A DNA stretch of 54,996 nt from a virus (IMGVR_UViG_3300045988_171436:1-54996), one strand, 5' to 3'. Numbered from the stretch's first letter, positions 1 through 41,916 are shown. Translations and numbers: made by a program. Notes: generated by a model not told the origin, from the sequence alone.

Positions 1-52
1 CAGCGCATTCGTAATGCGAAGGTCGTAGGTTCGACTCCTATTATCGGCACCA
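1..52 (+). tRNA. thrW: 3' portion of tRNA-Thr (anticodon CGU), truncated by the window start
   Basis: Sequence CAGCGCATTCGTAATGCGAAGGTCGTAGGTTCGACTCCTATTATCGGCACCA matches the anticodon arm, T-arm and CCA end of enterobacterial tRNA-Thr(CGU) as remembered; ends in CCA at 50-52. Confidence 0.7.
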
Positions 53-53
53 T
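7..53 (+). repeat. attL core: 47-bp direct repeat identical to 41870-41916
   Basis: Exact 47-bp match between the two copies; mismatches immediately outside (pos 6 vs 41869, 54 vs 41917). Confidence 0.8.
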
Positions 54-66
54 TTAAATCAATAAG

Positions 67-1230
67 TTACACATCATTAGTACCTTCCTTATTTTTTGAC
101 TGGGACAAATTTGGGACCGATGGGTTCAGGATCGAGTCTATTTGCCGTGCGTGTTCGGTAAGGTGATTAGGTGCAAGGTGAGCATATCGACGAACCATTT
201 CGATAGACTCCCAGCCTCCCATTTCCTGTAACACTGACAACGGGACTCCGGCTTGAACCAGCCAACTTGCCCAGGTGTGTCTCAAGTCGTGAAATCTGAA
301 ATCATCAATACCAGCCCGTCTCAGCGCCGCTTTCCAGGCTGTGTTTGCGTCATACCGCATCTTCCTGACTGTTGGCGCTTTCGTTCCGTCTGGTTTGGTA
401 CAGCTTTCCTTGTACACAAATACCCAACGGTGATGATTCCCGATTTGTTTTTTCAATACGCGACATGCAGTATCATTCAGCGCAACGCCAATTGCGCGGT
501 TTGATTTACTCTCTTCCGGGTTTATCCATGCCACCCGGCGCTGCATATCTATTTGTTGCCATTCAAGGTTGATGATGTTCGAGCGTCTTAGGCCTGTTGC
601 CAGTGCAAATTCAACAACAGACTTTAATGGCTCCGGACATTCATCAATCAGCCTTTGTGCTTCATGGGGCTCCAGCCAGCGGATCCGTTTATTCTTTGGT
701 TGGGGCACTTTAATAATTGGTGCCTTATCCAGCATTTTCCATTCACGCTCTGCGGCTCTTAGTAGGGCCTTTATAAATGAAAGATGCGTAGCCTTCGTTG
801 CAACGGACGCTGGTTTTGGCGTGTATTCTGGAACAGGTTTCCCTTTTTTTCTGCATGCTTCTGCCCTGAGTTTCCAGTTTTCCTCATGACGCCGGTTCGT
901 CATTTTCTGCATTGCTGAATAAATTTTTGATTCAGTAATGTCTCTTAGTTGCATTCCTGCGAAATGTTGAAGCCAGAATCCGATCCGGCTTTTGTCATCG
1001 TCCAGTGATTTTTTATGTGCTTTCTCTTCAAGCCACCTGACACACGCTTCCTCGAACGTTATATCAGGTATTTCACCAAGTTTGCTGACCCGCCATGCTT
1101 CAGCCTTTAGCTTGTCATGGAGTTCTGTCGCCTGCCTTTTGTCCTTTGTTCCAAGAGACTGTTTAAATCTTTTACCGTTCGGCAATGTGAAACTGGCGTA
1201 CCATATTTCACCTCTGCGGAAGAGTGACAT
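67..1230 (-). CDS. int: Tyrosine integrase, P22-like
   Basis: 387 aa; C-terminal HDLRHTWAS and RRYAHL motifs (R-H-R-Y catalytic signature); N-terminus [21 protein letters not shown] typical of P22-family integrases, which target thrW. Confidence 0.9.
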
Positions 1231-1457
1231 TTTCTTTCCTCTGTTATGTCATCACCCGCGCTCACCTGGACAGTATGCAGCGGAGACTGAAGAGCCGCAA
1301 TGCAGGCTTGTCGTGTTGTGAGGTAAGGAGATTTATTCTTAGTGGGATCTTTGCGTGTTGCCTGAAGACGCCCTGTGCGTATCCAGTTAATGGCAGTCTG
1401 TCTGGATATCTTGAGAAAATGACAGGCCTCATCGAGTGTGAGGCTGTATGGCTCCAT
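1107..1457 (-). CDS. xis: Excisionase (Xis), overlaps int start
   Basis: Internal Met of ORF 1107..1541 gives 117 aa starting [31 protein letters not shown] (HTH excisionase-like); position immediately upstream of int. Confidence 0.6.
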
Positions 1458-1762
1458 TATTTCACCTCTTGCTGTGACATTGTTGAAAAATGGATACCAG
1501 CTCGTTGCTGCCAGACGATCCAACCGAGAGTCATATCCCATGCCATGTATTCGTTATCGCCGTTTTTTGCTCTCCGACGATCTACTAAGTCACCGAAACG
1601 CTTTTCCATGAATAATTCATAAGCTTCGCGTTCATCTGGTTCTACTTCCAGAGATAGGAGTGCGATTTCATAAGCACGGCGCTCAATATCGTCTCGCACG
1701 TCAAGGCTGCTGATACGCTCTTTAATTTCTTTAATCAGTTCTTTGTCGGTAAAAGTGGTCAT
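1457..1762 (-). CDS. Hypothetical phage protein (101 aa)
   Basis: ORF in leftward early operon, stop overlaps xis start. Confidence 0.45.
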   Translation of the reverse strand: MTTFTDKELIKEIKERISSLDVRDDIERRAYEIALLSLEVEPDEREAYELFMEKRFGDLVDRRRAKNGDNEYMAWDMTLGWIVWQQRAGIHFSTMSQQEVK

Positions 1763-2124
1763 TATGCTCCAGCCTCCGGTGCTTTTGGCATTACTGCCCA
1801 GTGAGTGATATTGACGTTTTCAAGGTCCCCGACCTGAAATGTCCACTGCCATTCTCCGGTTTCTTTTTGTCCCCAGGTGTACCAGAGAGAACGCCAGCCA
1901 ATTAGCCAGCCTTCTCCGTTAGCATCGAATAACAAAACACTTTCATTTGCTGGTGGCAGTTCAGTTGACACTGGTATTACTTTGTTTTCCTGTGCTGCAC
2001 ATTTAGCTTCAAGCGCATCGAATTTACGCACTAGGTATTCAGCATCTGTTTCATTTACTTTCAGATCTCGCGGTACACATCTCCCACGAAGAAACCCTTC
2101 CATTTCGAAAACATTCATGCGCAT
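1762..2124 (-). CDS. DUF551-like phage protein
   Basis: 120 aa, Trp-rich C-terminus ending ...ITHWAVMPKAPE as in DUF551 family (recalled). Confidence 0.45.
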   Translation of the reverse strand: MRMNVFEMEGFLRGRCVPRDLKVNETDAEYLVRKFDALEAKCAAQENKVIPVSTELPPANESVLLFDANGEGWLIGWRSLWYTWGQKETGEWQWTFQVGDLENVNITHWAVMPKAPEAGA

Positions 2125-2678
2125 TTGCGTAACTCCGATAACTCGTTAAAGCGTTCCATAAACATCCCGTAGGCATGGCCCGGAGCCAGTGGAATCACGT
2201 TGAACATCTCTGTTGCCGGGATACCTTCCAGTACAGGCCAGAAAGAGCCATCATCAAGCCCGAGATCGCGGCGTTCGGTTGCCAGCATGATGAGATCGGC
2301 ATATTTCACGGGCGTACTCATAACTGGGGGTAACCCGTATTTCTCACGGATTACGGCGTCTATTTTTTCTTCCATTTGTTTATAGTCAGGAAGAAGGCGT
2401 TTCAGTGGTGCGGGAATGTCCTGGCAATACGCTTCTGTTGCATCATGCATTAACGCTTCAAAAGCAAATTCCTGCGGCACCAGCTGGCTGCAAAGAACCG
2501 CATGTTGGGCGACGCTGTAGAAGTGCGAAAGATGACCGGCAAAGCGACAGATATTTGAAAGGGAAACCGCGATATCGTTAATATCGATGTCGTCTTTATT
2601 TATCCTGTCATAATAAAAATGCTTCCCGGAAAAAGTTTTAATAAATGACATTTTGTTCTCCACGTATATGCGCTGCAC
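2115..2678 (-). CDS. HD-domain-like phosphohydrolase (putative)
   Basis: 187 aa with H...HD arrangement (SVAQHAV ... LMHDATEAY). Confidence 0.4.
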   Translation of the reverse strand: MQRIYVENKMSFIKTFSGKHFYYDRINKDDIDINDIAVSLSNICRFAGHLSHFYSVAQHAVLCSQLVPQEFAFEALMHDATEAYCQDIPAPLKRLLPDYKQMEEKIDAVIREKYGLPPVMSTPVKYADLIMLATERRDLGLDDGSFWPVLEGIPATEMFNVIPLAPGHAYGMFMERFNELSELRKCA

Positions 2679-2778
2679 CGCGCTGAATTCTGGTAAAAAG
2701 AATCCCTCACCATCCGGCGATTATTGAGTAAATTACGTTTCCATAAATGCCCCCGCAGGGGCATTTGCAGTAATGAAA

Positions 2779-3603
2779 TCAGGCGGTGAAAGTACCAATA
2801 AAGGTTTCTACTTTGCTGTCCTTGAATTTCTCAACAAGCAGATCACGAAATTCGTTAGCCATTTCTTCCTGCACCGCCTCCAGCTGAATAATGCGTAGAA
2901 CCAGTACAGGACGATCGCCAGTGATAATACTGAGGCGTAATTTAAACGGACGTTCTTTCAGACCTTCAAACGGAACGCATTTAAATTCAAATGCCACTGG
3001 CATAATGTCTTTGGTCTTCGCTTCGACAGACTCCATCAGGGAGCGTTTGCCGCTGAAGTCATTATCTTCAAAATCAGCGGTCTGGTTTGCTTCAATCGTG
3101 ATTTTACGGACAGCCGCAGCCGCTTTTGTTGCCTGAATAGCGTCACCATTAGCATCAAAGCCCACAAGATAGTCGGCCCAGTCTTCAATCCATTCTGCCA
3201 GTGACTTCTGGGAGTTACGCTCGCCGTTAACAGACAACAGAGCAGAGAACGGTGCTGTCTTTTTCAGTTTGAGTGTGGCGGTGTTATCTGCGTGACCTGG
3301 TTCATCAATAGTACCCAGGTTAAGCACACTGACGGCACGCATATTATCAGCATCGATAAAGCAGCGGGTGCCTTCATCTGCAAGATCTTTAGAATAACGG
3401 GTAAAGTCATCGATGCTGGCAGTGGAAAGCGCACCACGGAAACGGAAGCGATTTAAATTAAATTTTTCCAGATCATGAATGCGGAAATTCTCAGGCAATG
3501 CCACAGCATCGGCACCAATCTTACTGATAATTTCATTAACACCCTGAGCAGAAATAAGGGCATGGATTTGATTAATTGCGGTTGCGTCTAAGTTCTGAGA
3601 CAT
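2779..3603 (-). CDS. DUF2303 (YfdQ-like) phage protein
   Basis: 274 aa; resembles prophage YfdQ-type proteins as remembered. Confidence 0.45.
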
Positions 3604-3668
3604 AATAAGTCCTCACTATATAAAGATATTCAGTGATGAGATAAATAATCAGTTAATTAAAAACGATA

Positions 3669-4031
3669 TTAACGACCTGCTGCGCGGAGTTTTCCGTCAG
3701 GTTCACCGGCAAGAGTCAGTAACTGTCCCTGGTCTTCCTGCAGAATAGTCAGGCGACCACCGCGATTGACATACATCGGCGTTTCGGTGGTGTCTTCTTC
3801 GGAAATTTTCCCGCGGTTAGTCGGGCGAACATATGAGAGTTTGTGTTTGATTTTCACTCGGTTCTCATCAAACGGTTCGATTTCCAGGTTGAGCGAGACC
3901 TTACCTTTGGTTTTCGTGTTCATCACACCGGAAGCGACTTCACTGAGAACTGCGCCGATTTTGGTTTCAAATACGCCGCCGTCCAGCTCCCCGATAAATG
4001 CCTGCACATCAGTACTGCGTTCGCTAGCCAT
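3669..4031 (-). CDS. Hypothetical phage protein (121 aa from internal ATG)
   Basis: Protein-like sequence begins at MASERSTDVQAF...; the N-terminal extension of ORF 3669..4349 runs through a GC-rich structured region and looks non-coding. Confidence 0.4.
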   Translation of the reverse strand: MASERSTDVQAFIGELDGGVFETKIGAVLSEVASGVMNTKTKGKVSLNLEIEPFDENRVKIKHKLSYVRPTNRGKISEEDTTETPMYVNRGGRLTILQEDQGQLLTLAGEPDGKLRAAGR

Positions 4032-4499
4032 TTTGCTGCTCCTCATCATATCGACCCTGCAAGGTCGGTTAGTTTCTCCACAAAACAGAGAAGAACACCT
4101 GCGGTGACTGCCGCCCGGATGGATTGGGTTATGAGCCCGTCGTCCGGTGATGCTCTTCTCTGTTTTGTAAAAAGGACGGTACCAGCCGGAAGCAAGGGTA
4201 CAAGCTGGTACCGCCAAGACTACACACAGCATAAAGTTGTGGTGCCGGGTGCCTCCCGGTGCCTGGCGAAGGTTGCACACCAGGCGGGTGGGTATCCACA
4301 GAAGGTCGACTGTCAGCCTCAACCTTAACCCGCGTGCGCTGAGCCGCATTCACCACAACGCTAAGGATTCTCTCTGGTTGAAAATACTTAGCTGTTATGT
4401 GCCTGCTTTTAGCCACATCAGGCGAGGTGGACCTAGTTATTCCCCAACAACAAGGATTCGGTTAATCTGGTTATCCCCAACAACGCAAAAGGAAAAGAA

Positions 4500-4934
4500 A
4501 TGTCCGGTAATATCTATACGCTGTACAAATCCCACTGTGAAAATGTTGGAAAGTATCGGGGCATTGAAATCAGTGGGGTAGTGTCATCAGTCGAAATAAG
4601 CAAAGTTGAATCAAGGGCAACATTACTTACTCTTTTGGACCTTGTCTTACATGAGCACCGGAAGAAATTCGGCACTCCCTATAATCAGTTGAATGGGAAA
4701 AAGGCTCTGGTTCACCTTATTCTGATGAAGCATCACTGGATGCCAAAACAGATTAATGAGATGAAATTTGATGAACTTCTTCTTTCAATTCAGGATGAAC
4801 TCACACTTGATAAAATAAGCGTAACCGCCCAGAAATTTTTAGATTATCGAGACTGGAGATCACAAATTCATCACTTTGATGATTTTGACGAAAATGAATG
4901 GGATCCTAATTTGTCTGCACAATATCTAAAGTAA
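4500..4934 (+). CDS. Hypothetical protein (144 aa), antisense moron in early-left region
   Basis: AT-rich ORF opposite to surrounding leftward genes; own upstream direct repeats and downstream terminator. Confidence 0.5.
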   Translation: MSGNIYTLYKSHCENVGKYRGIEISGVVSSVEISKVESRATLLTLLDLVLHEHRKKFGTPYNQLNGKKALVHLILMKHHWMPKQINEMKFDELLLSIQDELTLDKISVTAQKFLDYRDWRSQIHHFDDFDENEWDPNLSAQYLK

Positions 4935-5451: not shown

Positions 5452-6144
5452 TTAATTATGTCTCTTAAGGGTTTGCGACTGACTGATTAAGACCTTTCCA
5501 AAGACCATGAATCGGTGTTCGTTTTCGCTAGTAATTCCCCATTCACGGTAAATCTGGTTATCAGAAATCACCAGCAGTTTGTCAGGAATCATTTGAAGTC
5601 TTTTAACGTATATTTTGTCATCAAAACCAAAGACATATATACCATCACCATCAAACTGATTGATGCTGACATCAACGAAGATGAGATCTCCTGGCTCAAT
5701 GGTTGGACACATACTGTCCCCACGAACGTTGATAACTTTGATGTGATTGGCTGGTCGTCCGCCGAACATTGATACAGCATTATCAGTTCTGTATTCGATG
5801 GCATGAATCACATCAATGACATCACCGCCCTGGATAAGGCCATTTCCCGCACTGGCACTGATATCCAGCATTTCAATACGGAACACATCCTTCACCTGCG
5901 CAACATCCTCATTATTACTGTTTTTATATACAGTATTACTTTTGTGGGCAGAGGTAAAGAGATCAGCAATATCAACACCTAAGCTCTTGGCAATATTACT
6001 CAGTGTTTGTTCGGTAAATTGTTTTTGCTTACCCGTTTCTAAGCGCGAGATGTTCGCCGCATCTACTCCTATTGCTTCAGCGAGATCGGCGATTTTCATG
6101 TTCTTCGCTTGGCGAAGTTGTCTGACTCGGTTTCCTATGTTCAT
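5452..6144 (-). CDS. cI: CI-like repressor (HTH-XRE plus S24 LexA-type peptidase domain)
   Basis: 230 aa; N-terminal HTH (IADLAEAIGVDAANISRLETGKQ); C-terminal GDSM serine motif and conserved Lys (VFGKVL) typical of autocleaving repressors; divergent from cro. Confidence 0.85.
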   Translation of the reverse strand: MNIGNRVRQLRQAKNMKIADLAEAIGVDAANISRLETGKQKQFTEQTLSNIAKSLGVDIADLFTSAHKSNTVYKNSNNEDVAQVKDVFRIEMLDISASAGNGLIQGGDVIDVIHAIEYRTDNAVSMFGGRPANHIKVINVRGDSMCPTIEPGDLIFVDVSINQFDGDGIYVFGFDDKIYVKRLQMIPDKLLVISDNQIYREWGITSENEHRFMVFGKVLISQSQTLKRHN

Positions 6145-6164
6145 GCGTTTATTACATTTCTTTA

Positions 6165-6213
6165 TTGCGTGATAAGCAAATCAACTTGCGCAAAATAATT
6201 GCGTGAAATAACA
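6165..6213. promoter_or_regulatory. OR-like operator region between cI and cro
   Basis: TTGCGTGATAAGCAA (6165-6179), palindrome TTGCGCAA (6186-6193) and degenerate TTGCGTGAAATAACA (6199-6213); GGAGG RBS at 6233-6237 before cro. Confidence 0.5.
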
Positions 6214-6241
6214 TGCATAACGCGCAATATTTGGAGGTCAT

Positions 6242-6502
6242 ATGCAATCACCATTACGAAATGTGCGTAAGGCGCATGGTTTCACTTTGCAGCATGTTGC
6301 TGCGGGTGTTCAAGTCAATCCAGCGACGTTGAGTCGTATTGAGAGGCTGGAGCAGATTCCATCTATCGAGCTTGCAGAACGTTTAGCCAATTTTTTTAAG
6401 GGTGAAGTCAGCGAAATGCAGATTCTTTATCCGGCACGTTTTCAATCTAGCCAAAACCAGAATGGGTTTAAACCACAGGAACAGGAGGTGAACCGTGGGT
6501 AA
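6242..6502 (+). CDS. cro: Cro-like HTH regulator
   Basis: 86 aa with HTH (FTLQHVAAGVQVNPATLSRIER), divergently transcribed from cI. Confidence 0.7.
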   Translation: MQSPLRNVRKAHGFTLQHVAAGVQVNPATLSRIERLEQIPSIELAERLANFFKGEVSEMQILYPARFQSSQNQNGFKPQEQEVNRG

Positions 6503-7046
6503 GCATCACTGGAAAGTAGAAAAACAGCCTGAGTGGTACGTGAAAGCTGTCAGAAAAACTATCGCAGCGTTGCCGGGGGGGTACGCTGAAGCTGCTGACT
6601 GGCTGGATGTAACAGAGAACGCATTATTTAACCGCCTTCGTGCCGATGGCGATCAGATTTTCCCGCTGGGATGGGCAATGATTTTGCAACGTGCTGGTGG
6701 AACTCACTTCATTGCTGACGCTGTGGCGCAGTCTGCAAATGGCGTCTTTGTGTCTCTTCCTGACGTCGAGGATGTGGACAACGCCGATATTAACCAGCGC
6801 CTGCTGGAAGTCATTGAACAGATCGGCAGTTATTCAAAACAGATTCGTTCAGCAATTGAAGACGGTGTAGTGGAACCGCATGAGAAGACAGCAATTAACG
6901 ACGAGCTGTACCTCTCAATTTCGAAGCTGCAGGAGCATGCAGCACTGGTCTACAAAATTTTTTGCATTTCAGAAAGTAATGACGCCCGCGAGTGTGCAGC
7001 TCCGGGCGCCGTGGCGTGTCGTGACTGTGGAGAAACTAACGCATGA
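6495..7046 (+). CDS. Early regulatory protein (CII/YdaT-like, tentative)
   Basis: 183 aa immediately after cro; family assignment from memory only. Confidence 0.35.
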
Positions 7047-7381: not shown

Positions 7382-7401
7382 AGGTCGGTCATGAGCACTA
7401 A
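7222..7401 (+). CDS. Candidate small TTG-initiated gene (59 aa) in alternative frame
   Basis: AAGGAG (7208-7213), 8-nt spacer, TTG at 7222; product ...[53 protein letters not shown]. Confidence 0.3.
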
Positions 7402-8332
7402 ATTAACCGGCTATGTATGGGATAGTTGCGCTGCATCAGGCATGAAATTATCCAGCGTGGCAATTATGGCCCGCCTGGCTGATTTCAGTAATGACGAAGG
7501 TGTGTGCTGGCCATCAATTGAAACCATTGCCCGCCAGATTGGCGCGGGGATGAGTACCGTCAGAACGGCTATCGCACGGCTGGAAGCAGAAGGCTGGTTA
7601 ACGCGTAAGGCGCGTCGCCAGGGTAACCGCAATGCGTCGAATGTTTATCAGCTTAACGTTGCGAAGCTTCAGGCAGCGGCATTTTCTCAACTGTCAGATT
7701 CTGACCCGTCAAAATCTGACGCATCAAAATCTGACCCGTCAAAATTTGATGCGTCGAAATCTGGCAAAAAAGCGGGTTTTCACCCGTCAGAATCTGGCGG
7801 GGATCCGTCAGTAAAATCAAAACATGATCCGTCAGATAAAAAAACTTCTCGTCCGGACGCTTCGCAACCGGACACGCAGACGGATGAACAGGATTTTTTA
7901 ACTCGCCATCCTGATGCGGTTGTATTCAGCCCTAAAAAGCGCCAGTGGGGAACGCAGGATGATTTGACCTGCGCACAGTGGCTCTGGAAAAAAATCATCG
8001 CCCTGTACGAGCAGGCCGCCGAATGTGACGGCGAGGTGGTTCGTCCCAAAGAACCGAACTGGACAGCCTGGGCAAACGAAATTCGCCTGATGTGTGTGCA
8101 GGATGGTCGTACTCACAAACAAATCTGCGAGATGTACAGCCGCGTCAGCCGCGATCCGTTCTGGTGCCGTAACGTGCTCAGCCCGTCGAAGCTGCGGGAA
8201 AAATGGGATGAGCTTTCCCTGCGCTTATCGCCGTCCGTAAGCACGTACACCGAAAAACGCGAAGACCCGTACTTCAAATCCAGTTACGACAACGTGGACT
8301 ACAGCCAGATCCCGGCAGGATTCAGGGGGTGA
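7391..8332 (+). CDS. Replication initiation protein (lambda O-like) containing origin iterons
   Basis: 313 aa; N-terminal winged-HTH; central SKSD repeats encoded by DNA iterons; position after cro/cII-like genes. Confidence 0.6.
   Translation: MSTKLTGYVWDSCAASGMKLSSVAIMARLADFSNDEGVCWPSIETIARQIGAGMSTVRTAIARLEAEGWLTRKARRQGNRNASNVYQLNVAKLQAAAFSQLSDSDPSKSDASKSDPSKFDASKSGKKAGFHPSESGGDPSVKSKHDPSDKKTSRPDASQPDTQTDEQDFLTRHPDAVVFSPKKRQWGTQDDLTCAQWLWKKIIALYEQAAECDGEVVRPKEPNWTAWANEIRLMCVQDGRTHKQICEMYSRVSRDPFWCRNVLSPSKLREKWDELSLRLSPSVSTYTEKREDPYFKSSYDNVDYSQIPAGFRG
7695..7850. repeat. Putative origin of replication: iteron array plus A-rich tract inside the O-like gene
   Basis: Repeated CCGTCAAAATCTGACG-type units from 7695 to about 7770, further CCGTCAG repeats, then GATAAAAAAACTT at 7835-7848. 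Confidence 0.5.
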
Positions 8333-8334
8333 TC

Positions 8335-8823
8335 ATGAGTCTGTTAAATGACGTTCAGAAATTCATTGAAGCCCATCCGGGGTGTACTTCCGGAGACATT
8401 GCGGATGCTTTTGCTGGTTACTCACGGCAGCGCGTTCTGCAGTCAGCAAGCAAGTTACGTCAGAGTGGGCGTGTGGCTCACCGTTATGAAGGGGATACAC
8501 GCAGACATTTCCCGCGCCTGACTGAGAGAGCGCAGGAGCCGGAACCACAACCAGTTCGTGAAACCAGACCTGCGCGCAATTTCTATGTCGGCACTAACGA
8601 TCCCCGGGTGATTTTGTGCCTGACCCGCCAGGCGGAAGAACTGGAGTCAAGGGGCTTATACCGTCGTGCTGCAACCGTGTGGATGGCGGCATTCCGTGAA
8701 AGCCACTCCCAGCCAGAACGAAACAATTTTCTGGCGCGTCGTGAGCGGTGCTTACGGAAAAGCAGCAAGCGCGCTGCATCGGGTGAAGAGTGGTATCTGT
8801 CAGGGAATTACGTGGGGGCTTAA
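8335..8823 (+). CDS. Hypothetical phage protein (about 162 aa)
   Basis: AGGGGG RBS 6 nt before ATG 8335; Arg-rich C-terminus. Confidence 0.4.
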   Translation: MSLLNDVQKFIEAHPGCTSGDIADAFAGYSRQRVLQSASKLRQSGRVAHRYEGDTRRHFPRLTERAQEPEPQPVRETRPARNFYVGTNDPRVILCLTRQAEELESRGLYRRAATVWMAAFRESHSQPERNNFLARRERCLRKSSKRAASGEEWYLSGNYVGA

Positions 8824-9476
8824 TGAGTAATAAATATTGCCAGGCGCTGGTGGAACTGCGGAATAAACCAGCCCATGAACTGAAGGAAGTGGGAGATCAG
8901 TGGCGCACGCCGGATAACATTTTCTGGGGAATTAACACCCTGTTTGGTCCGTTTGTTCTGGATCTGTTCACTGACGGTGATAACGCCAAATGTGCCGCGT
9001 ATTACACGGCGGAAGACAACGCGCTGGCGCATGACTGGTCAGAACGTCTTGCGGAGCTTAAAGGTGCTGCCTTTGGTAATCCCCCATACAGCCGCGCCAG
9101 TCAGCATGAGGGGCAATACATCACCGGCATGCGTTACATCATGAAGCATGCCAGTGCCATGCGTGATAAAGGCGGGCGCTATGTTTTCCTGATCAAAGCT
9201 GCCACCAGCGAAGTGTGGTGGCCGGAAGATGCAGACCATATTGCTTTTATTCGCGGGCGTATTGGTTTTGAACTGCCTGTCTGGTTTATCCCGAAAGACG
9301 AGAAGCAGGTGCCGACAGGAGCGTTCTTCGCTGGTGCTATTGCTGTTTTCGATAAGACCTGGAAGGGACCGGCAATCAGCTACATCGGGCGCGATGAACT
9401 TGAGACATGTGGTGAGGCGTTTCTGGCGCAGGTTCGCCAGCAGGCGGAAAAACTGGTCAGGGAGATGGCGGCATGA
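8823..9476 (+). CDS. Phage Dam-like N6-adenine DNA methyltransferase
   Basis: FGNPPYS motif (NPPY catalytic motif IV); TAATG stop/start overlap with upstream gene. Confidence 0.75.
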   Translation: MSNKYCQALVELRNKPAHELKEVGDQWRTPDNIFWGINTLFGPFVLDLFTDGDNAKCAAYYTAEDNALAHDWSERLAELKGAAFGNPPYSRASQHEGQYITGMRYIMKHASAMRDKGGRYVFLIKAATSEVWWPEDADHIAFIRGRIGFELPVWFIPKDEKQVPTGAFFAGAIAVFDKTWKGPAISYIGRDELETCGEAFLAQVRQQAEKLVREMAA

Positions 9477-10185: not shown

Positions 10186-10204
10186 TTAAGAGGAGAAACG
10201 AAGT

Positions 10205-11002: not shown

Positions 11003-11003
11003 G

Positions 11004-11999: not shown

Positions 12000-12001
12000 T
12001 T

Positions 12002-12379: not shown

Positions 12380-12395
12380 TATCTTGGTTTGGATA

Positions 12396-29952: not shown

Positions 29953-29984
29953 AGACGAACAGGGAGGGCCGCCCCTCCCTGAAC

Positions 29985-30431: not shown

Positions 30432-30541
30432 GTTATCACCTTAATGCTAATGATTTATATAGTTACAAATGGTAATGGCTACCACTACAAATTATGGCAT
30501 TACCAGTAAATATTACTACTGATAATAAATATGGGACTTAT

Positions 30542-31870: not shown

Positions 31871-32946
31871 ACGACAATGTCACGCTACGGGTAAATGGCC
31901 GGGAGTGGAATGGCTGGACATCGGTGCGCATCGGTGCCGGTATTGAACGGCTGGCACGGGATTTCAGTGTGGAGATCACCCGCCAGTGGCCGGGAGATGA
32001 GGGTATCACCACGCTTCAACCGCGTATTAAAAACGGTTCAAAAGTGGAAGTTCTGATTAGTGATGAACTGGTGATCACCGGCTGGGTGGAGGCGACGCCC
32101 GTTCGTTACGATGCCCGTTCGGTCAGCACTGGTATTGCCGGACGCAGTCTGACCGCTGACCTGATTGACTGTGCAGCCGAACCGACACAGTTTAACGGAC
32201 GATCGCTGGTACAGATTGCGCAGGCGCTTGCTGCGCCTTTCGGCATTGAGGTGGTGAACAACGGTGCGCCGTCGGGCGTTATTCCTGATGTCCAGCCTGA
32301 TCACGGCGAAACGGTGATTGAGGTGATCAACAAAATACTCGGTCAGCAGCAGGCACTGGCTTACGACGACCCGCACGGCAGGCTGGTGATTGGCGGTATT
32401 GGCTCAACGCGGGCACATACCGCGCTTGTACTCGGGGAAAACATCCTTTCCTGCGATACGGAGAAGAGTATCCGGGAGCGGTTTTCTGTTTACCAGGTGG
32501 CGGGGCAGCGTGCCGGAAACGACGATGATTTCGGTGAGGCCACCACCACCGCGCTGCGGGCCCGCACAGAGGACGCATTTATTTCCCGTTACCGTCCGAT
32601 GTATATCAGGCAGACAGGGCAGGCCACGGGGGCAGGCTGTATTGCCCGTGCTGACTTTGAAGCCCGACAACGGGCGGCGCGGACGGATGAAACCACCTAT
32701 GTGGTGCAGGGCTGGCGACAGGGTAACGGTACGCTGTGGCAGCCCAACCAGCGGGTGATTGTCTTCGATCCGGTCTGTGGTTTCGACAATACCGAACTGC
32801 TTGTCTCGGAAGTCACGTTTACTCTGGACCAGAACGGCACCCTGACGGAAATCCGTGTCGGCCCACCTGATGCTTATCTGCCTGAACCCGAAGCCCCCGG
32901 CGCGCGGAAAAAGAAAAAAGCCAGAGTACAGGAGGACCCGTTCTGA
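31867..32946 (+). CDS. Baseplate/tail protein (Mu P-like)
   Basis: 359 aa, synteny. Confidence 0.6.
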   Translation: MNDNVTLRVNGREWNGWTSVRIGAGIERLARDFSVEITRQWPGDEGITTLQPRIKNGSKVEVLISDELVITGWVEATPVRYDARSVSTGIAGRSLTADLIDCAAEPTQFNGRSLVQIAQALAAPFGIEVVNNGAPSGVIPDVQPDHGETVIEVINKILGQQQALAYDDPHGRLVIGGIGSTRAHTALVLGENILSCDTEKSIRERFSVYQVAGQRAGNDDDFGEATTTALRARTEDAFISRYRPMYIRQTGQATGAGCIARADFEARQRAARTDETTYVVQGWRQGNGTLWQPNQRVIVFDPVCGFDNTELLVSEVTFTLDQNGTLTEIRVGPPDAYLPEPEAPGARKKKKARVQEDPF

Positions 32947-33494
32947 TGAGTACGATTGAAGCCATGCAGCGACAACTCCTCGGCCTGATTGGGCGGGCCG
33001 TGGTGAAAAGCATCAGTGCCGCCACGAAATGTCAGACCGTGGATGTGTCCCTGATTGCCGGTGAACCCAAAGCCGGGGTTGAACATCTTGAACCCTACGG
33101 TTTTACCGCAAGGGCAAACAGCGGTGCGGAAGCGGTGGTGTTGTTTCCGGATGGCGACCGTTCTCATGCGGTGGTTGTTACGGTGTCGGACCGGCGCTAC
33201 CGCCTGAAAGGGCTGCAGACGGGTGAGGTGGCTGTCTATGACGATCAGGGGCAGTCCGTGACACTGACCCGGGAGGGGATCGTGGTGGACGGTGCAGGTA
33301 AAACGATCACGTTTTGCAATTCACCTAAAGCACGTTTTGAAATGGACCTTGAAGTGACCGGACAGGTGAAAGACCTGTGCGACTCCGGCGGCACCACCAT
33401 GTCAGCGATGCGGCTTGCCTATAACGGGCATCGTCACAGAGAGAACGGTCAGGGCAGTAACACCGACAAACCTGATAAAGCGATGGAGGCATGA
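32946..33494 (+). CDS. Baseplate assembly protein V (spike)
   Basis: 182 aa, synteny. Confidence 0.6.
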   Translation: MSTIEAMQRQLLGLIGRAVVKSISAATKCQTVDVSLIAGEPKAGVEHLEPYGFTARANSGAEAVVLFPDGDRSHAVVVTVSDRRYRLKGLQTGEVAVYDDQGQSVTLTREGIVVDGAGKTITFCNSPKARFEMDLEVTGQVKDLCDSGGTTMSAMRLAYNGHRHRENGQGSNTDKPDKAMEA

Positions 33495-33919
33495 TGGAAC
33501 TGTGGCTGACGGTGAACGGTAAACGCACCTGCGCCAGCGCACCGCTGGATCCGCTGACCCGCGCCGTGGTGATTTCCATGTTTACCTGGCGGCGGGCGGA
33601 GCCTGATGACAATGCCGACGTCCCGATGGGATGGTGGGGGGATACCTGGCCTGCGGTACAGAATGACCGTTACGGCTCCCGACTGTGGCTGCTTCAGCGC
33701 AGCAAACTGACCAATCAACTGGTGCAGACGGTAAGGGGGTATATCCGCGAATGCCTGCAATGGATGATTGATGACGGCGTGGTGTCCCGTATTGATCTGG
33801 ATATCCGCCGCACCGGGATTAATGAACTGGGTAACAGTATCACTCTCTGGCGTCGTGACGGACCGGTAATGATTTCTTTTGATGATCTGTGGAGTGCGAT
33901 AACGCATGGCGGACAGTGA
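33491..33919 (+). CDS. GP46-like baseplate protein
   Basis: 142 aa, synteny. Confidence 0.55.
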   Translation: MMELWLTVNGKRTCASAPLDPLTRAVVISMFTWRRAEPDDNADVPMGWWGDTWPAVQNDRYGSRLWLLQRSKLTNQLVQTVRGYIRECLQWMIDDGVVSRIDLDIRRTGINELGNSITLWRRDGPVMISFDDLWSAITHGGQ

Positions 33920-34964
33920 ATTTCAGCGCCCGACGCTGGCAGAAAATATCAGTATGCTCCGTAACGATTTATTCGCCAGGCTGGACGTCAGCGACACGCT
34001 CCGGCGCATGGATGAAGACGTGCGGGCAAAGGTGTATGCGGCGGCGCTGCATACGGTTTACGGGTACATCGATTATCTGGCAATGAACATGCTGCCTGAC
34101 CTGTGCGATGAGTCCTGGCTGGCGCGACATGCTGCGATGAAACGGTGTCCGCGCAAGGGGGCCACGGCTGCCAGCGGGTATATGCGCTGGGAAGGTGTCA
34201 GCGATGGCCTGAAGGTGACCGCCGGAAGTGTTATTCAGCGCGATGACCTGGTTCAGTACACGGCAACTGCCGATGCAACCAGCACCGGTGGTGTCCTGCG
34301 CGTGCCGATCGCCTGCTCAAGTGCAGGCGCGGTCGGTAACGCTGACGACGGTACGTCATTAATTTTGGTCACGCCGGTTAATGGTCTGCCGTCTTCCGGC
34401 GAGGCAGATACCCTGACAGGTGGATTTGATACTGAAGAGCTGGAAACGTGGCGCGCCCGCGTCATTGAGCGGTATTACTGGACGCCTCAGGGCGGGGCTG
34501 ACGGGGACTATGTCGTCTGGGCTAAAGAAGTGCCCGGCATTACCCGCGCATGGACATACCGACACTGGATGGGAACGGGGACTGTCGGTGTGATGATTGC
34601 CAGCAGTGACCTGATTAACCCCATTCCGGAAGAATCAACGGAAACAGCGGCAAGACAACATATCGAGCCACTGGCCCCGGTGGCAGGCTCTGATTTGTAT
34701 GTATTCAGGCCGGTGGCACATACGGTGGATTTTCATATCCGCGTGACGCCGGACACACCAGAAATACGAGCCGCCATCACCGCGGAGTTGCGTTCGTTTC
34801 TTCTGCGTGATGGTTATCCGCAGGGAGAACTGAAGGTATCGCGTATCAGTGAGGCGATTTCCGGTGCGAACGGGGAATACAGCCATCAGTTGCTTGCACC
34901 GGCAGACAATATCTCCATTGCGAAAAATGAACTGGCGGTTCTGGGGACGATTTCATGGACGTGA
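33906..34964 (+). CDS. Baseplate J-like protein
   Basis: 352 aa, synteny. Confidence 0.7.
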
Positions 34965-35539
34965 CAAACGATGATTACATCCGTCTGTTGTCGGCACTGT
35001 TGCCCCCTGGTCCGGCGTGGTCAGCCAGCGATCCGGCGATTGCCGGTGCGGCACCGTCATTAACCCGTGCTCATCAGCGTGCGGATGCCCTGATGCGGGA
35101 GCTGGATCCGCGCACCACCACCGAACTGATAAACCGCTGGGAGCGTCTGTGCGGCCTGCCGGATGAATGTATTCCGGCAGGGACGCAGACCCTTCGCCAG
35201 CGTCAGCAACGGCTGGATGCGAAGGTTAACCTGGCGGGCGGCATCAACGAGGATTTTTATCTTGCACAGCTTGCTGCCCTGGGCAGGCCAGATGCCACCA
35301 TCACGCGATACGACAAAAGCACCTTCACCTGCTCATCGGCCTGTACTGACGCGGTGAATGCGCCGGAATGGCGGTATTACTGGCAGATCAACATGCCAGC
35401 CGCCACCAACACCACCTGGATGACATGTGGCGATCCCTGTGATTCCGCGCTGCGTATCTGGGGCGACACCGTTGTCGAATGTGTGCTTAACAAACTCTGC
35501 CCGTCGCATACCTACGTAATTTTTAAATATCCGGAGTAA
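34955..35539 (+). CDS. DUF2313 (YmfQ/Mu gp48-like) tail protein
   Basis: 194 aa, synteny. Confidence 0.6.
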
Positions 35540-35542
35540 TCC

Positions 35543-36469
35543 ATGCATCGTATAGACACGAAAACCGCGCAGAAGGATAAGTTCGGCGCGGGTAAGAACG
35601 GTTTTACCCGTGGTAACCCCCAGACCGGCACACCTGCCACCGATCTGGATGATGACTACTTTGACATGTTGCAGGAAGAACTCTGCAGCGTGGTGGAGGC
35701 ATCCGGTGCCAGTCTGGAGAAGGGGAGGCACGACCAGCTGCTTACCGCGCTTCGTGCGCTGCTGTTAAGCCGCAAAAATCCGTTTAGCGATATCAAATCG
35801 GACGGCACGGTGAAAACGGCTCTCGAAAACCTTGGTTTGGGAGATACAAGCGGATACGTGGGACGCTGGGTGAATACCCGGGTTTTCACGTCATCAGGTA
35901 CGTACACCCCGACGCCAGGAACAAAACGGATCAGGGTCACAATAACGGGCGGCGGTGGCGGAGGGGGCGGCTGCAAGGCTATATCCAATAATGAAACGTT
36001 TTTCGGTGCTGGCGGCGGGGCAGGTGGGACAGTAATCACCACGCTGATCCTGACGAAGGATAGTTATCCTGTCACTATCGGTGCAGGTGGGGCCGGCGGC
36101 GTTAGTGCGACGAACGGCCTCAAGGGCGGTGATAGCTCGTTCGGATCGGTAATAGCCCCTGGTGGTGAAGGTGGTGGAAAATCAGGAGTCACAAACACGA
36201 ACGGTGGTAACGGCGGCGTGCCAAGTACTGGCGGTATCAACATCATTGGTGGAAATGGAGGCGACGGTCAGTCCGGAAATATCGGCGTCAGCGGTGAAGG
36301 CGGAACATCGTACTGGGGGGGCGGTGGACGCGCAGGCGCTGGCGGTGGTGTTAGTGGTAAGGCATATGGTTCAGGTGGCGGTGGCGCATACGATGCCGGT
36401 TATAGCGGAACCAGTATGACAGGCGGGAAAGGTGCTGCTGGGATTTGTATTATCGAGGAGTTTGCATAA
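35543..36469 (+). CDS. Tail fibre protein with Gly-rich repeat domain
   Basis: 308 aa with long GGxGG repeats. Confidence 0.65.
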
Positions 36470-36885
36470 TGAATGCGTCATATGCAGTTATTGAAAATGG
36501 GATGGTTGTGAATGTCATTGTCTGGGATGGCGAGGCTGAATTCACAGTGCCGGATAATCAGCAGCTCATTGATATTTCTGATATAAGTGAGCATCCCGGA
36601 ATCGGCTGGGTGTATTCAGACGGGGTATTTACTGCGCCGCTCCCTCCGGAACGTTCTCATGATGAACTGGTAGCTGACGCTGAACAGAAAAAACAGTCGT
36701 TGATAGACGCAGCAATGGTCAATATCAGCGTGATTCAGTTAAAGCTGCAGGCCGGGCGCAAACTGACGCAAGAAGAAACTACCCGACTTAACGTTGTGCT
36801 GGATTATATCGAGGCTGTGACGGCAACAGATACCAGCATTGCACCGGATATTGAGTGGCCGGATGAACCGTGCTTCGCTGAGTAA
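36469..36885 (+). CDS. Tail fibre assembly chaperone
   Basis: ATAATG stop/start overlap; [25 protein letters not shown] typical Tfa start. Confidence 0.6.
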   Translation: MNASYAVIENGMVVNVIVWDGEAEFTVPDNQQLIDISDISEHPGIGWVYSDGVFTAPLPPERSHDELVADAEQKKQSLIDAAMVNISVIQLKLQAGRKLTQEETTRLNVVLDYIEAVTATDTSIAPDIEWPDEPCFAE

Positions 36886-36931
36886 AGTCTGTTGAGGATA
36901 AGCGGTTTAATTGTAACTCAATTCTTTTTGT

Positions 36932-36990
36932 GTAATAAAAGTAGGACAAAACTGTGACACATAAAGCCTCGCAATGGTTTGCAAGGCTTT
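36932..36990. repeat. 59-bp imperfect direct repeat, copy 1 (partner 41734-41793), with internal stem-loop
   Basis: About 86 percent identity between copies; internal dyad AAAGCCT-CGCAATGGTTTGCA-AGGCTTT. Confidence 0.7.
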
Positions 36991-37092
36991 GAACGCTTCT
37001 GTATTGATGATGTGACGCGGTTTCGTTTATTTCCATTCTATATATTGATGTCGATTTTTATGAATATAGAGCATACGGATAAACTGCAGTGT

Positions 37093-37127
37093 GATTAGAG
37101 TCAAAGTAATAGTTGTTGACTCTAATC
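37093..37127. terminator. Perfect 12-bp stem-loop downstream of acyltransferase gene
   Basis: GATTAGAGTCAA ... TTGACTCTAATC. Confidence 0.5.
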
Positions 37128-37145
37128 ATTGCAAAGTGACTTTAC

Positions 37146-38213
37146 TTAATGAAATTTATCTCGGATGAATTGTTGCGATGGTTTTTCAATGAATATATAT
37201 GACATATAGCTAATTGCCATTAATGTAAGCATGAATAAAATGAATACCTTGGGGCTGTAAAAAAGATCGCGTCCATAGCCAATCTTGTCAGCTAAATAAA
37301 CAACAATGATTTGTAAAGGAAAATGTAAAAGATAAGATGAATAACTGATATCGCCCAACCATTCAATTTTTTTCCCAAAATCGTTTCGTATTGCGCTAAT
37401 TGATACAAGGAAAAAGATTATGGAGGTAAATCCGAATAAGATAATTGAGAATATATCTGCTACTTGCAGGGTAAAGATAACTCCCCATGAGATCAATAGA
37501 AAAACACAAGCAAAAATAAAAAATAACTTTGCGCTAATATTTTTTATGGCCGCAATCGTAATTTTATAAGTCAGACCACCAATAAAGAAAGAGAATGCGC
37601 CGATCATTATGGGATTGTTAATTTTGAAAAAGTAGTACGACAATGCAACTATTAAAATTGATATGAATGTTGTTTTTGATGTGAACTTGCATAATATAAA
37701 AAATATCATGTACATAAGTACTTCAATCGACACGGACCATGTCGGGGCGTTGAAGGACCAACCTCGCTCAAATCCCCATGATTGAATCATCAATAAATTC
37801 AGAATGGCATGGTAAATGTCATTCATAGGATAAACAAAAAAATAATTATGACTTTTAAAGAAAATAATTTGTAATATTGCCACGGCAGCAAATGTAAATA
37901 TATAAAGTGGATATAATCTACTGACACGGTTAACTATAAAAGTTTTTGCTGAGGTTTTATTGCTGTGTATATTGTCAGCGTATAGATAAAAAAATATGAA
38001 TCCAGAAATCATAAAAAACAATTCGACAGCATATAAACCGTAATGATAAAAGACGGAAAAAAATTCATAAAAAGGTTGGCGGTTTATGATTATGTCAGAT
38101 GCAGCATTCTTTTTCATAAAAAAATGTTGCCAATGCCATAACACAACGGAAAGTGCGGCAAATCCTCTCAGAACATCCAGGGTATATATTCTCTTCCCAA
38201 AAACATTCGTCAC
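37146..38213 (-). CDS. Integral-membrane acyltransferase (acyltransferase-3 family; O-antigen acetylase-like)
   Basis: 355 aa, about 10 TM segments, N-terminal LDVLRGFAALSVVLWH motif; very AT-rich. Confidence 0.8.
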   Translation of the reverse strand: MTNVFGKRIYTLDVLRGFAALSVVLWHWQHFFMKKNAASDIIINRQPFYEFFSVFYHYGLYAVELFFMISGFIFFYLYADNIHSNKTSAKTFIVNRVSRLYPLYIFTFAAVAILQIIFFKSHNYFFVYPMNDIYHAILNLLMIQSWGFERGWSFNAPTWSVSIEVLMYMIFFILCKFTSKTTFISILIVALSYYFFKINNPIMIGAFSFFIGGLTYKITIAAIKNISAKLFFIFACVFLLISWGVIFTLQVADIFSIILFGFTSIIFFLVSISAIRNDFGKKIEWLGDISYSSYLLHFPLQIIVVYLADKIGYGRDLFYSPKVFILFMLTLMAISYMSYIFIEKPSQQFIRDKFH

Positions 38214-38704
38214 AACGAACCTCTTTTAATAAAGTCAAGTGATAATGAAAGATAAATATTGTAAACGAAAAAGCACTGGACTGGAACATATATCTCTGCC
38301 TATAATTTAACTAGGAAAATTTTACTAACGCAGTCATAATTCGTTCATGTATACCAGATGAAAGTACATGTTCTATGAAATAGGGTTTTGCCTGGAGTTT
38401 GAAGGTTTTTAACGATTATACCTGTTTAATCGACTCCCCATGTTTTTTGACATTATCCACCGCACACGATACTGGATGCCAGGTAAACTGATTTGCTGGC
38501 ATAAAGTCACTGAGAATTTTTTACCAACAATATCTTGCCACATCTTTTCCCGCACAGTTTCGGCAATAGAATCAGCGGGCAGCGGTCATCAATATTCACC
38601 AGACATTGATCTGCCGCACTATCTGACCGGTGTCCTGCTGAGAATACTAATTTCTTTTTTTGCAAGTGCTGTCCAATCATGATTGGGGGGGGGCCGGCGG
38701 AGTT

Positions 38705-38744
38705 GAAACCGCAGGTACGTTGTATGCAATAACGTGCTGCGGTT
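38705..38744. repeat. Conserved hairpin element, copy A (partner 39725-39765)
   Basis: GAAACC + stem + core ACGTTGTATGCAATAACGTGCT; stem AAACCGCAG/CTGCGGTTT. Confidence 0.6.
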
Positions 38745-38764
38745 TAATCTTATCAATTGAATAC

Positions 38765-39634
<870 letters not shown>

Positions 39635-39724
39635 CTAACCCTTTGAATTTACATAGCGCAAAAAGATACCTTTCCTCATAATGTGAGCTAATTTTATGTT
39701 TCGTTTGATGATCGGATCGGTCTC

Positions 39725-39765
39725 GAAACCCGTAGCCACGTCGTATGCAAGAACGTGCTACGACT
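39725..39765. repeat. Conserved hairpin element, copy B
   Basis: GAAACC + stem + core ACGTCGTATGCAAGAACGTGCT; stem GTAGCC/GCTAC differs from copy A but pairing is preserved. Confidence 0.6.
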
Positions 39766-40101
39766 GGCTGGTGAACTTCCGATAGTGCGAGTATTGAATG
39801 ATTTCCAACTGTTATCGATTTTGCGTATTTTTTGCATGAGAGGATTTTTACCTCCTCCCACCGATCCTCCATGGCTTTACGCCAGTGTCTCTGGTCTGCT
39901 ATGTGCCAGAAGCGGACGTTGCGGGACGTCAGATATCTAAAAAAACTAATGGTCCGCTTGGATAGATACTTACACAGGATGCAATAAAGAGTTTCTATTT
40001 CTTTGTGGTAGCAAACTTTGATTTCTGAAGGATAATACCTCCAATAAGTTGAAATCACATATATCGCTAAAGACTCTATACAACAACCAAGAGAGACCGC
40101 A

Positions 40102-41487
40102 ATGGATAGTGTCAGTAGTGTTGAGCGTTTAAGAACAAAAGCTTTTTATCAGTTGCTTGTGGATAGGCTTGGAACTGAGGCCTGGGCTGCTCGCAAAGCT
40201 GCATATTTCAAGCGCATAAGAGAGAAGGAGGCTAAGTTTAACATCAATCTGCCGATAGAGCCCCAGCTCTTCATACCAGCAGAAGATGACATCGACTGGT
40301 ACATTCTGGCGTCGTATCTGTCTCATGATTTTCCATATAGTGATGCTACTTACAGCAGCAGACGTATCTACCCCTATGCTATGGCCATCGGAGCTGTTGC
40401 AGACCAGCTTCGCAAAGTCCCATACGTCGATGATGTTCTGGACAAAATGCTAGCAAATAACAATAAACCAGAAACTCAAATTTTTGAGCTGCTGACGGCA
40501 TCGTTCTACCTAAAGAACGGCTATGAGGTTGCCTTCATCCCAGAAAGCAGCATTGTTTGGCCCGATGGAAAGACCAAAAAATCACCGGATATGCTTGTCA
40601 AGTTAGGTGATCTGGAGTTCTACGTCGAGTGCAAAAGGTCGGATAAGCAAACCAAGTACTCAAAGACAGAAGAGCAAGCCTGGGCCAACATCTGGCATCA
40701 ATTGAGCCAACATATGCTCAAAGTCGCACCATGGAACATTGTCGATATAATTTTCCATGAGCAGGTCGCCAGTGTGACTCCGGCAGACGTTATTAAAGCG
40801 GTGAATCTAGCCATTAAAGGGGGGACGGGAAAAGCTAATGAAGGTTCAATCAGTGTGGGAATACGAGCCATCGACAAATTAGGTCTCAGACGTCACTACA
40901 GAAAATTTTCAGTCAGAGCCAATAGCCCACAGCATGAATTGCTGGTATTTGGGGATCTAGATAGCAATGAGAAACGAAGTATCTCGACTATCGCTCAGAG
41001 AGTTATTCGTCCTGGCACCAATAACGATATTCTCAACATTTTTGTAGAGGATGTTGCAAAGTGCGTTGGAGCTCAGTGGCGCTGCGATCATGAGATTTCT
41101 CTTGGCCTCAGATCCAAGCATTTCAAGAGCTTGCTCAATGATGGAGTCATGCAGATTCCCCCTGATCGTGCTGGCGTGGTGCATATTTGGTATGAGACTT
41201 GCGAAGGCATAGATATTGAAGAACTACGTAGGGATAAAAACATGGAGCATATCTCGGCCTACGATGCCTCTAAAACAACTGTGTTGGGTGCTTTCCTGCA
41301 TGCCGTTAATTATTACCCATTAGAGGACAACTATGAGTGGGCTGAGACTGTTCAAGACTTTGCCCGTGTCCCGGATTTGATGGGGCTCTTCCTTAGACAG
41401 CCATTGATGCTTACATCTGACTCGACGCGTGGGGTCGAAGGTGTCACACATTGGGAGCAAGATAAGGCCGCAAAAAGCATGCGTTGA
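40102..41487 (+). CDS. PD-(D/E)xK nuclease-like protein with large unknown C-terminal region (461 aa)
   Basis: ELLTASFYLKNGYEV ... SPDMLVKLGDLEFYVECKRSDK gives the E / PD / ExK triad spacing. Confidence 0.5.
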   Translation: MDSVSSVERLRTKAFYQLLVDRLGTEAWAARKAAYFKRIREKEAKFNINLPIEPQLFIPAEDDIDWYILASYLSHDFPYSDATYSSRRIYPYAMAIGAVADQLRKVPYVDDVLDKMLANNNKPETQIFELLTASFYLKNGYEVAFIPESSIVWPDGKTKKSPDMLVKLGDLEFYVECKRSDKQTKYSKTEEQAWANIWHQLSQHMLKVAPWNIVDIIFHEQVASVTPADVIKAVNLAIKGGTGKANEGSISVGIRAIDKLGLRRHYRKFSVRANSPQHELLVFGDLDSNEKRSISTIAQRVIRPGTNNDILNIFVEDVAKCVGAQWRCDHEISLGLRSKHFKSLLNDGVMQIPPDRAGVVHIWYETCEGIDIEELRRDKNMEHISAYDASKTTVLGAFLHAVNYYPLEDNYEWAETVQDFARVPDLMGLFLRQPLMLTSDSTRGVEGVTHWEQDKAAKSMR

Positions 41488-41733
41488 AAGTGGCTGGAAT
41501 ATGGCGATACTGGGAACATAACTATTCACCGCGTTTCATAACCCACTCTCGGCTGATTAACACACGTTATCGTTGGAGGAAAGGACCAATTCCCTACGTC
41601 CGCTCCTCGCTCATAACAGACATAAACTTCAGTTATGGCATAAAGGTATGCATGCTGGGTGGGGAAAGTATGAAGGAAAAGAAGACTGCTGCGCCGTTTG
41701 TCGTCACGTTTATCTTCATTGGCTATGCAAGTC

Positions 41734-41793
41734 GTAATACAAGGTGGGACAAAACTGAGACACATAAGGCCTCGCAATGGCTTGCAAGGCTTT
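41734..41793. repeat. 59-bp imperfect direct repeat, copy 2
   Basis: Aligned to 36932-36990. Confidence 0.7.
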
Positions 41794-41869
41794 ACATGTT
41801 TTGATGTGGTGGGACGTGTGAGCGCAGTATTGATGGGGTAATGCTTTGAATTAGAAGCGGATTCTTATA

Positions 41870-41916
41870 ATTCGTAATGCGAAGGTCGTAGGTTCGACTC
41901 CTATTATCGGCACCAT
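41870..41916 (+). repeat. attR core: duplicated 3' end of tRNA-Thr
   Basis: Exact 47-bp copy of 7-53. Confidence 0.8.

Follow-up and report, generated by a model that had tools for sequence, protein, structure and literature searches.

The window analysed here is a 54,996-nucleotide (nt) stretch of viral DNA (IMGVR_UViG_3300045988_171436:1-54996; "the window" always means this whole stretch). We conclude with high confidence that its positions 54-41916 represent an SfV-like temperate prophage, a 'lambdoid myovirus', whose closest relatives are the Shigella phages SfII and SfV together with Escherichia coli prophages of the same type. In the literature, members of this group (SfV, SfII, SfI, SfIV, ST64B, phiP27 and e14-type elements) are described as lambdoid phages whose tail is of the Myoviridae type (PMC3603311, PMC3636060, PMC3851460). 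When the element was compared by megablast to 50,697 phage records, the top matches were Shigella phages SfII, SfI, SfIV and SfV and the E. coli phage vB_EcoM-689R6. On a blastn map it is collinear with these relatives over its whole length at 95-98% nt identity, the shared length being 29.1 kb for SfII, 25.8 kb for SfV and 28.8 kb for 689R6, and the only stretches without a counterpart in SfV, SfII or 689R6 lie at 12064-13976, 29956-30537 and 35845-41744. The likeness to SfII (NC_021857) and SfV (NC_003444) thus spans 26-29 kb at this identity and includes the attachment (att) core, the thrW integration site and the gene order throughout. Of 5,426 complete E. coli genomes, 42 also contain 80% or more of the left 25 kb, at 97-98% identity, and in E. 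coli KW21 the proA-thrW site is likewise occupied by a relative, whose gene order is the same.

The hallmarks of SfV-like phages were found along the element. A P22/SfV-type integrase gene and an excisionase gene adjoin attP, cI/cro, O-type replication, Q and S-R-Rz follow the lambdoid organization, HK97-family portal, protease and capsid genes occur with cos packaging (the cos site being assigned by sequence match), and the contractile tail and baseplate genes are Mu-like. Each of the 40-odd conserved genes covers approximately 100% of its SfII or SfV counterpart, with no truncation, and the element is apparently complete with all conserved genes at full length.

Several observations weigh against this assignment. 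In the collections searched, neither a phage record nor a complete E. coli genome covers the whole element; the best phage records reach 57-69% of each half, and the best genome reaches 89% of the left 25 kb, so this exact mosaic is unrecorded there. The gtrABC genes of all the named Sf phages are missing here. Furthermore, at 41.86 kb the element is slightly longer than the longest family member we examined (SfII, 41.48 kb), which casts some doubt on packaging.

Attachment sites and the limits of the element at thrW

An exact 47-bp direct repeat at 7-53 and 41870-41916 (plus strand) brackets a unit of 41,863 bp. The repeat corresponds to nt 31-76 of tRNA-Thr(CGU), including the CCA end, plus one downstream T. 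The 3′ part of thrW (about nt 25-76 of the tRNA) occupies positions 1-52 on the plus strand and is identical to the tRNA-Thr of E. coli CUVM53, in which the full gene is a 76-nt tRNA-Thr with anticodon CGT (contig L004, 3971-4046), with the core beginning at nt 31. ARAGORN called no tRNA in the window because the window start cuts thrW, leaving the 5′ third of the gene outside. The 25-nt 3′ part of the core occurs twice in the window, compared to zero copies expected from 100 shuffles, and a search with this part found no third copy in the window even when up to three mismatches were allowed.

We prepared a four-way alignment of attL, attR, the empty proA-thrW site of CUVM53 and the attP of phage SfV. 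At attL (B-O-P′, core 7-53), the tRNA lies to the left of the core and the P′ arm of SfV to its right. At attR (P-O-B′, core 41870-41916), the left (P) arm at 41745-41869 is 96% identical to SfV 20467-20591, and the right arm is the chromosomal sequence that immediately follows thrW in CUVM53. When the two arms from the window are joined in silico, the attP of a sequenced free phage, SfV, results, and in silico removal of the element leaves a real empty site.

The att core has been determined experimentally for SfI, and according to the same paper it does not differ in SfII, SfV, SfX or P22 (PMC3636060). Its first 46 nt (ATTCGTAATGCGAAGGTCGTAGGTTCGACTCCTATTATCGGCACCA), present at 7-52 and 41870-41915, match the published SfI core letter for letter. 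SfV and SfII each contain one copy of the core. P22, another phage that integrates at thrW, has a single copy of the first 46 nt, adjacent to int. The lambda, HK97 and Mu genomes do not contain the core. The exact repeat and the four-way alignment agree with the original prediction, made from the window sequence, which had placed the prophage boundaries at thrW with this 47-bp core and had read the core as the 3′ end of tRNA-Thr(CGU). The same prediction had named a larger duplication as one finding that would undo these boundaries. Identity of the flanks ends exactly at the 47-bp limits on both sides, and the repeat is thus not the edge of such a duplication.

By analogy to the family, the P22/SfV-type integrase would recombine the attP core with the identical 46-47 nt of the thrW 3′ end. 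The tRNA would be rebuilt at attL with phage-derived sequence and the original 3′ end displaced to attR, and excision would proceed through Int and Xis acting on the two cores.

The right flank of the prophage is 99.9% identical at the nt level to an island that lies directly after thrW in CUVM53. In that strain the island spans about 18.3 kb (contig L021, 170-18474) and ends, at its far side, in a second exact core copy beside an integrase of its own (30% identity to the phage Int). This comparison indicates that the phage inserted between thrW and the island, which uses the same core, so that 41870-41916 bounds both elements, serving as attR of the prophage and as the left core of the adjacent island. 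We expect the genome represented by the window to hold a tandem array at thrW, with a third core copy beyond the window end.

Gene modules and the origin of the mosaic

We determined gene-by-gene affinities using tblastn and blastp against P22, lambda, HK97 and Mu, along with Pfam. The original prediction had suggested whole-genome comparison with these four phages, and the four module affinities that it named are all real.

The integration module is of P22 type. The tyrosine integrase (67-1230, minus strand; Pfam Phage_integrase, 3e-48) is 98-99% identical at the amino acid (aa) level to the SfV and SfII proteins and 90% identical to that of P22, and the excisionase (1107-1541, minus strand; HTH_17) is 97% identical to SfV and SfII Xis and 86% identical to P22 Xis. 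Beyond Int and Xis, tblastn of the element gave no P22 match at E≤1e-3. The resemblance to P22 is therefore confined to the integration module, and P22 itself, unlike this element, is a podovirus with headful packaging.

The lysis cassette (15510-16921, plus strand; assigned by homology and Pfam) comprises S, with a probable start at 15606, R (15936-16412) and Rz/Rz1. R is 89% identical to lambda R and 90% identical to HK97 R. S is a remote relative of lambda S (24%, E 2e-5; Pfam Phage_holin_3_1, PF05106), with a weak match to P22 gp13 in pairwise blastp (25%). Rz is 28% identical to Mu gp23 and matches lambda Rz over 37 aa only. The description of this cassette as lambda-like with a near-lambda R is accordingly sound for R and for the cI-cro-O...Q-S-R-Rz layout, which the element shares with lambda, whereas S is distant and Rz is barely alignable.

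The packaging and head genes (18157-25694, plus strand) encode TerS, TerL, portal, S78 protease, major capsid protein, connectors and tail terminator, and are 99% identical at the aa level to those of SfII. Portal, protease and major capsid protein are 32%, 36% and 26% identical to HK97 gp3, gp4 and gp5, and the Pfam families found (Phage_portal, Peptidase_S78, Phage_capsid, Phage_connect_1 and Phage_HCP) bear out an HK97-like head, although at merely 26-36% identity to the HK97 proteins. The element further resembles HK97 in having an HNH endonuclease gene (17690-18040, plus strand; 92% aa identity to SfV orf53) adjoining terminase. Within the family, the head is of the SfII/SfI/ST64B type and not of the SfV type, to which the portal and major capsid protein are merely 25-27% identical; such a head difference among SfV-like phages is noted in the SfIV paper (PMC3851460). 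Between the HNH and small terminase genes lies a single exact copy of TGCCCGCCCC (18106-18115, plus strand), the 10-nt cohesive end determined for SfI (PMC3636060), with which the element shares this cos decamer. SfV genome position 1 aligns to 18099, near cos.

The tail module (25857-36885, plus strand) is of Mu type and contractile, unlike the tails of lambda and HK97, and encodes sheath, tube, tape measure, a DNA-circulation N-like protein, baseplate P/gp45-48-like proteins, fibre and fibre assembly. Homologues of Mu L, N, P and gp45-48 are found in the same order at 28-44% aa identity, with sheath, Tail_tube, DNA_circ_N and GpP-like Pfam domains, in keeping with the predicted Mu-like tail. 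The likeness to Mu stops at the tail: the element has no transposase, integrates site-specifically and shows no nt similarity to Mu. Up to 35844, the module is 97-100% identical at the aa level to SfV and SfII; the fibre C-terminus (Gly_rich_2) and the fibre-assembly gene downstream differ from both. As in other members of the family, the genome would be cut at cos by the HNH/terminase set and packaged into the HK97-type head, which would be joined to the Mu-type contractile tail, and lysis would follow from the S-R-Rz cassette.

The claim that this combination is unusual does not hold. The same modules in the same order define SfV-like phages, and the element is collinear with SfV, SfII, SfI and SfIV. 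Publications on SfI and SfIV report this mosaic as well, along with insertion at thrW and a head of the HK97 family (PMC3636060, PMC3851460); the P22/lambda/HK97/Mu-like mix is already published for the family, and the thrW site, core and architecture have been on record since about 2000-2013. As judged from the alignments, the mosaic is inherited from the SfV family and not newly assembled, and the part specific to this copy is accessory: an SfII immunity, a small Q and three low-GC insertions. The prediction that module junctions coincide with moron insertions proved correct at two places, Q/lysis (12.4-13.8 kb) and tail fibre/attP (36.9-41.7 kb). It failed elsewhere, since the third insertion (29985-30431) sits within the Mu-like tail, and the int/xis-early-left and head-tail junctions carry no moron. 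The element is therefore of little consequence for phage biology, as a new member of a well-known family that is set apart by accessory genes alone, and part of its practical value lies in the precise annotation of attL, attR, cos and the modules that becomes possible.

Other explanations of the element have to be weighed against an intact SfV-like prophage. It is unlikely, though worth serious consideration, that the boundaries are right and the prophage is defective, failing to excise or to form virions. Many E. coli relatives have pseudogenes in this region (in KW21, the GIY-YIG gene is frameshifted and a tail protein is truncated), the genome exceeds that of SfII by 0.4 kb, and the tail operon holds an extra gene at 29985-30431. 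Against these points stand the full length of the 40-odd conserved genes relative to SfII and SfV, two perfect att cores, and the presence of cos and of the Int, Xis, cI, terminase, head and tail genes. A novel, unusual mosaic built at moron sites could draw on the position of two of the three low-GC insertions at functional module boundaries, and on the SfII/ST64B-type head, which points to module exchange within the family. We regard this explanation as very improbable, given that the same module order has been published since 2002 and recurs in SfV, SfII, SfI, SfIV and dozens of E. coli genomes, that the int/xis-early and head-tail junctions are free of morons, and that one moron lies inside the tail; the collinear alignments with SfV-family phages refute it.

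Two further explanations concern the boundaries. The prophage and the Hachiman-bearing island on its right could move together as one larger unit, using the core at 7-53 and a third core beyond the window; the CUVM53 island, near-identical to the right flank up to the window end and bounded by thrW and a second exact core with its own integrase, lends this some plausibility. The island is nevertheless found without the prophage in CUVM53, and the prophage type without the island in KW21 and ZYS9073, which marks them as separate elements. In addition, collinearity with the SfV attP sets the phage end at 41916, the island integrase is distant from the phage Int, and any third core copy would lie outside the window, so we consider a joint unit quite improbable. 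That the repeats stem from a larger duplication or an assembly artefact is hardly credible, because nothing was seen in its favour, identity stops at the 47-bp limits and the junctions are independently reproduced in SfV and SfII (attP) and in CUVM53 (attB).

The remaining conserved genes follow the family closely. Early-left genes (yfdT/yfdR/yfdQ/yfdP-like, named after the PGAP annotation of KW21) occupy 1457-4349 on the minus strand, with 96-100% aa identity to SfV orf28-32. In the immunity region (5452-7046), cI (5452-6144, minus strand) is followed by cro (6242-6502, plus strand) and by YmfL at the cII position (6495-7046, plus strand). cI and cro are 100% identical at the aa level to those of SfII, unlike those of SfV, which assigns the element SfII immunity. 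Adjoining cI, on the opposite strand, is an ECs1072-family phage-associated gene (4500-4934); in lambdoid phages, the slot beside cI often carries exclusion genes.

An O-like replication initiator (7391-8332, plus strand) is 99% identical to SfII_41 and 31% identical to lambda O at the aa level. Inside this gene, six TCAAAATCTGACCCG-like iterons with a 15-bp period at 7679-7801 are presumed to be the phage origin, as in lambda. Downstream, a nin-like region extends with Q over 8329-12379 (plus strand; YfdN, Dam methylase, RusA, KilA-N and YdfU/DUF968), at 95-99% aa identity to SfII and SfV. Q itself, a small antiterminator (12002-12379, plus strand; Pfam Phage_antitermQ, 8e-52), is 48% identical to SfII Q and gave no match to SfV Q. 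An N6/N4 DNA methyltransferase gene (14477-15529, plus strand; Pfam N6_N4_Mtase) is 99% identical at the aa level to SfV orf48 and precedes the lysis genes.

Accessory genes and the cargo slot beside attP

Compared to SfV, SfII, SfI and SfIV, the element lacks gtrABC and has a different fibre C-terminus, a different fibre-assembly gene and a different Q. Its three family-foreign stretches have a GC content of 0.35-0.41, compared to 0.50 for the prophage. Moron 1 (12423-13822, minus strand; GC 0.35) lies between Q and the methylase/lysis genes and encodes a 150-aa protein and a 310-aa DUF6731 protein (2.6e-11), with matches to phrog_8552 and phrog_7651, both of unknown function. It is absent from SfV, SfII and 689R6, has no nt match among the phage records, and gave no match in PADLOC or NCBIfam; our literature search turned up no DUF6731 paper. 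SfIV carries its moron in the same Q-lysis slot (PMC3851460).

Moron 2 (29985-30431, minus strand) separates the tape-measure gene from the DNA-circulation gene and, like moron 1, has no counterpart in SfV, SfII or 689R6. Its product is a 148-aa membrane-anchored OB-fold protein with an N-terminal hydrophobic helix (Pfam tRNA_anti-like, 6e-19), and it is Sie-like, matching phrog_8545, annotated 'superinfection exclusion Sie-like' (1e-49; a phrog_8552-neighbour family). For open reading frames (ORFs) of 150, 154 and 106 aa, PADLOC, NCBIfam and Pfam returned nothing useful. We consider the 106-aa ORF (41484-41804) to be probably no gene, as it has a TTG start, overlaps the conserved P arm and shows no family matches.

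The third insertion is the slot adjoining attP (36886-41744). Identity to SfV and SfII ends at 35844 and restarts at 41745 in the P arm, and no gtr homology was found in the slot. Glucosylating serotype-converting phages (SfI, SfII, SfIV, SfV and SfX) carry gtrA-gtrB-gtr(type) directly upstream of attP; here, an acyltransferase-3 gene, a PD-T4-3/CMoRE gene and a gene for a 461-aa protein take the place of gtrABC. It would thus be wrong to class the prophage with the serotype-converting gtr phages.

The acyltransferase-3 family protein (37146-38213, minus strand; GC 0.32) matches Pfam Acyl_transf_3 (2e-24) and the O-acetyltransferase family phrog_3333 (2e-40), making it a candidate O-antigen O-acetyltransferase. 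The second gene (38765-39538, minus strand) encodes a GIY-YIG type IV restriction endonuclease that covers the full PADLOC PD-T4-3 model (3.8e-140). As expected of PD-T4-3/CMoRE at the sequence level, it is a single protein with an N-terminal LEM-3-like GIY-YIG domain, and it is approximately 98% identical at the aa level to PDB 9U75, the crystallised enzyme of E. coli O157:H7 (E 2e-172). CMoRE degrades DNA containing 5-hydroxymethylcytosine (5hmC) and glucosyl-5hmC and depends on the modified cytosine (PMC12923530). A lysogen would probably gain resistance to T-even phages through this enzyme, and its O antigen would possibly be acetylated.

The last gene of the slot (40102-41487, plus strand) encodes the 461-aa protein, a candidate defence protein with a predicted PD-(D/E)xK nuclease domain. 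Foldseek and sequence searches gave no significant match, which makes the nuclease assignment tentative. Among the matches listed, there are at least 120 homologues at 53-99% identity, from Enterobacteriaceae, Pseudomonas, Aeromonas and others, none of which bears a protein name. Positions 39894-41612 of the window are 99.7% identical at the nt level to P2-like phages, and in eight of eight contigs the identical 461-aa protein is encoded between the tail-fibre assembly (Tfa) and sheath genes of a P2-like prophage, a slot that we take to be the position of the P2 fun gene. The fun locus is reported to be a second defence-enriched hotspot of P2-like phages (PMC9519451).

In E. coli relatives of the element, the acyltransferase and the GIY-YIG gene are retained and the last position is variable, being occupied by a 'lysogenic conversion protein', by a SIR2 protein, or by a kinase together with a hypothetical gene. 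This pattern suggests a cargo hotspot adjoining attP. Like the defence hotspots of P2-like prophages (old/tin and fun), it is a short variable slot next to conserved phage genes that takes exchangeable single-gene cassettes; unlike them, it belongs to an SfV-like phage, in which it separates the tail-fibre assembly gene from attP. We tentatively propose that the slot may be an exchangeable site for anti-phage cargo, with a fixed acyltransferase and CMoRE followed by a variable gene, and that the 461-aa PD-(D/E)xK-like protein, which would have come almost unchanged from the P2-like Tfa-sheath slot, may be a new single-gene defence system. The variable slot and the 461-aa gene fit a pattern already documented in general terms, in which P2-like prophages trade defence cassettes with other mobile elements (PMC13586616), and are modest leads for the discovery of defence systems.

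The thrW island in the right flank

Outside the prophage, the window continues into the thrW island (41917-54996), which holds ISSen4 (an IS3-family element), two unknown genes, Hachiman, an AbiJ-like gene and HigA. The Hachiman genes (47158-51172, minus strand) are adjacent, with HamA (DUF1837; PADLOC 3e-105) and HamB (helicase; PADLOC E=0) overlapping at 50333-50373. We also considered this flank as a part of the prophage and rejected it, as collinearity with the SfV attP ends at 41916, the island occurs alone in CUVM53, and the KW21 prophage lacks it.

On the distal side of the CUVM53 island (L021, 18474-18490), the 16 nt that follow the core (TTAAATCAATAAGTTA) are the same as in the SfV-type P′ arm next to attL in the window; beyond them, the sequences diverge. 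This short stretch may be the scar of an earlier SfV/P22-type integration.

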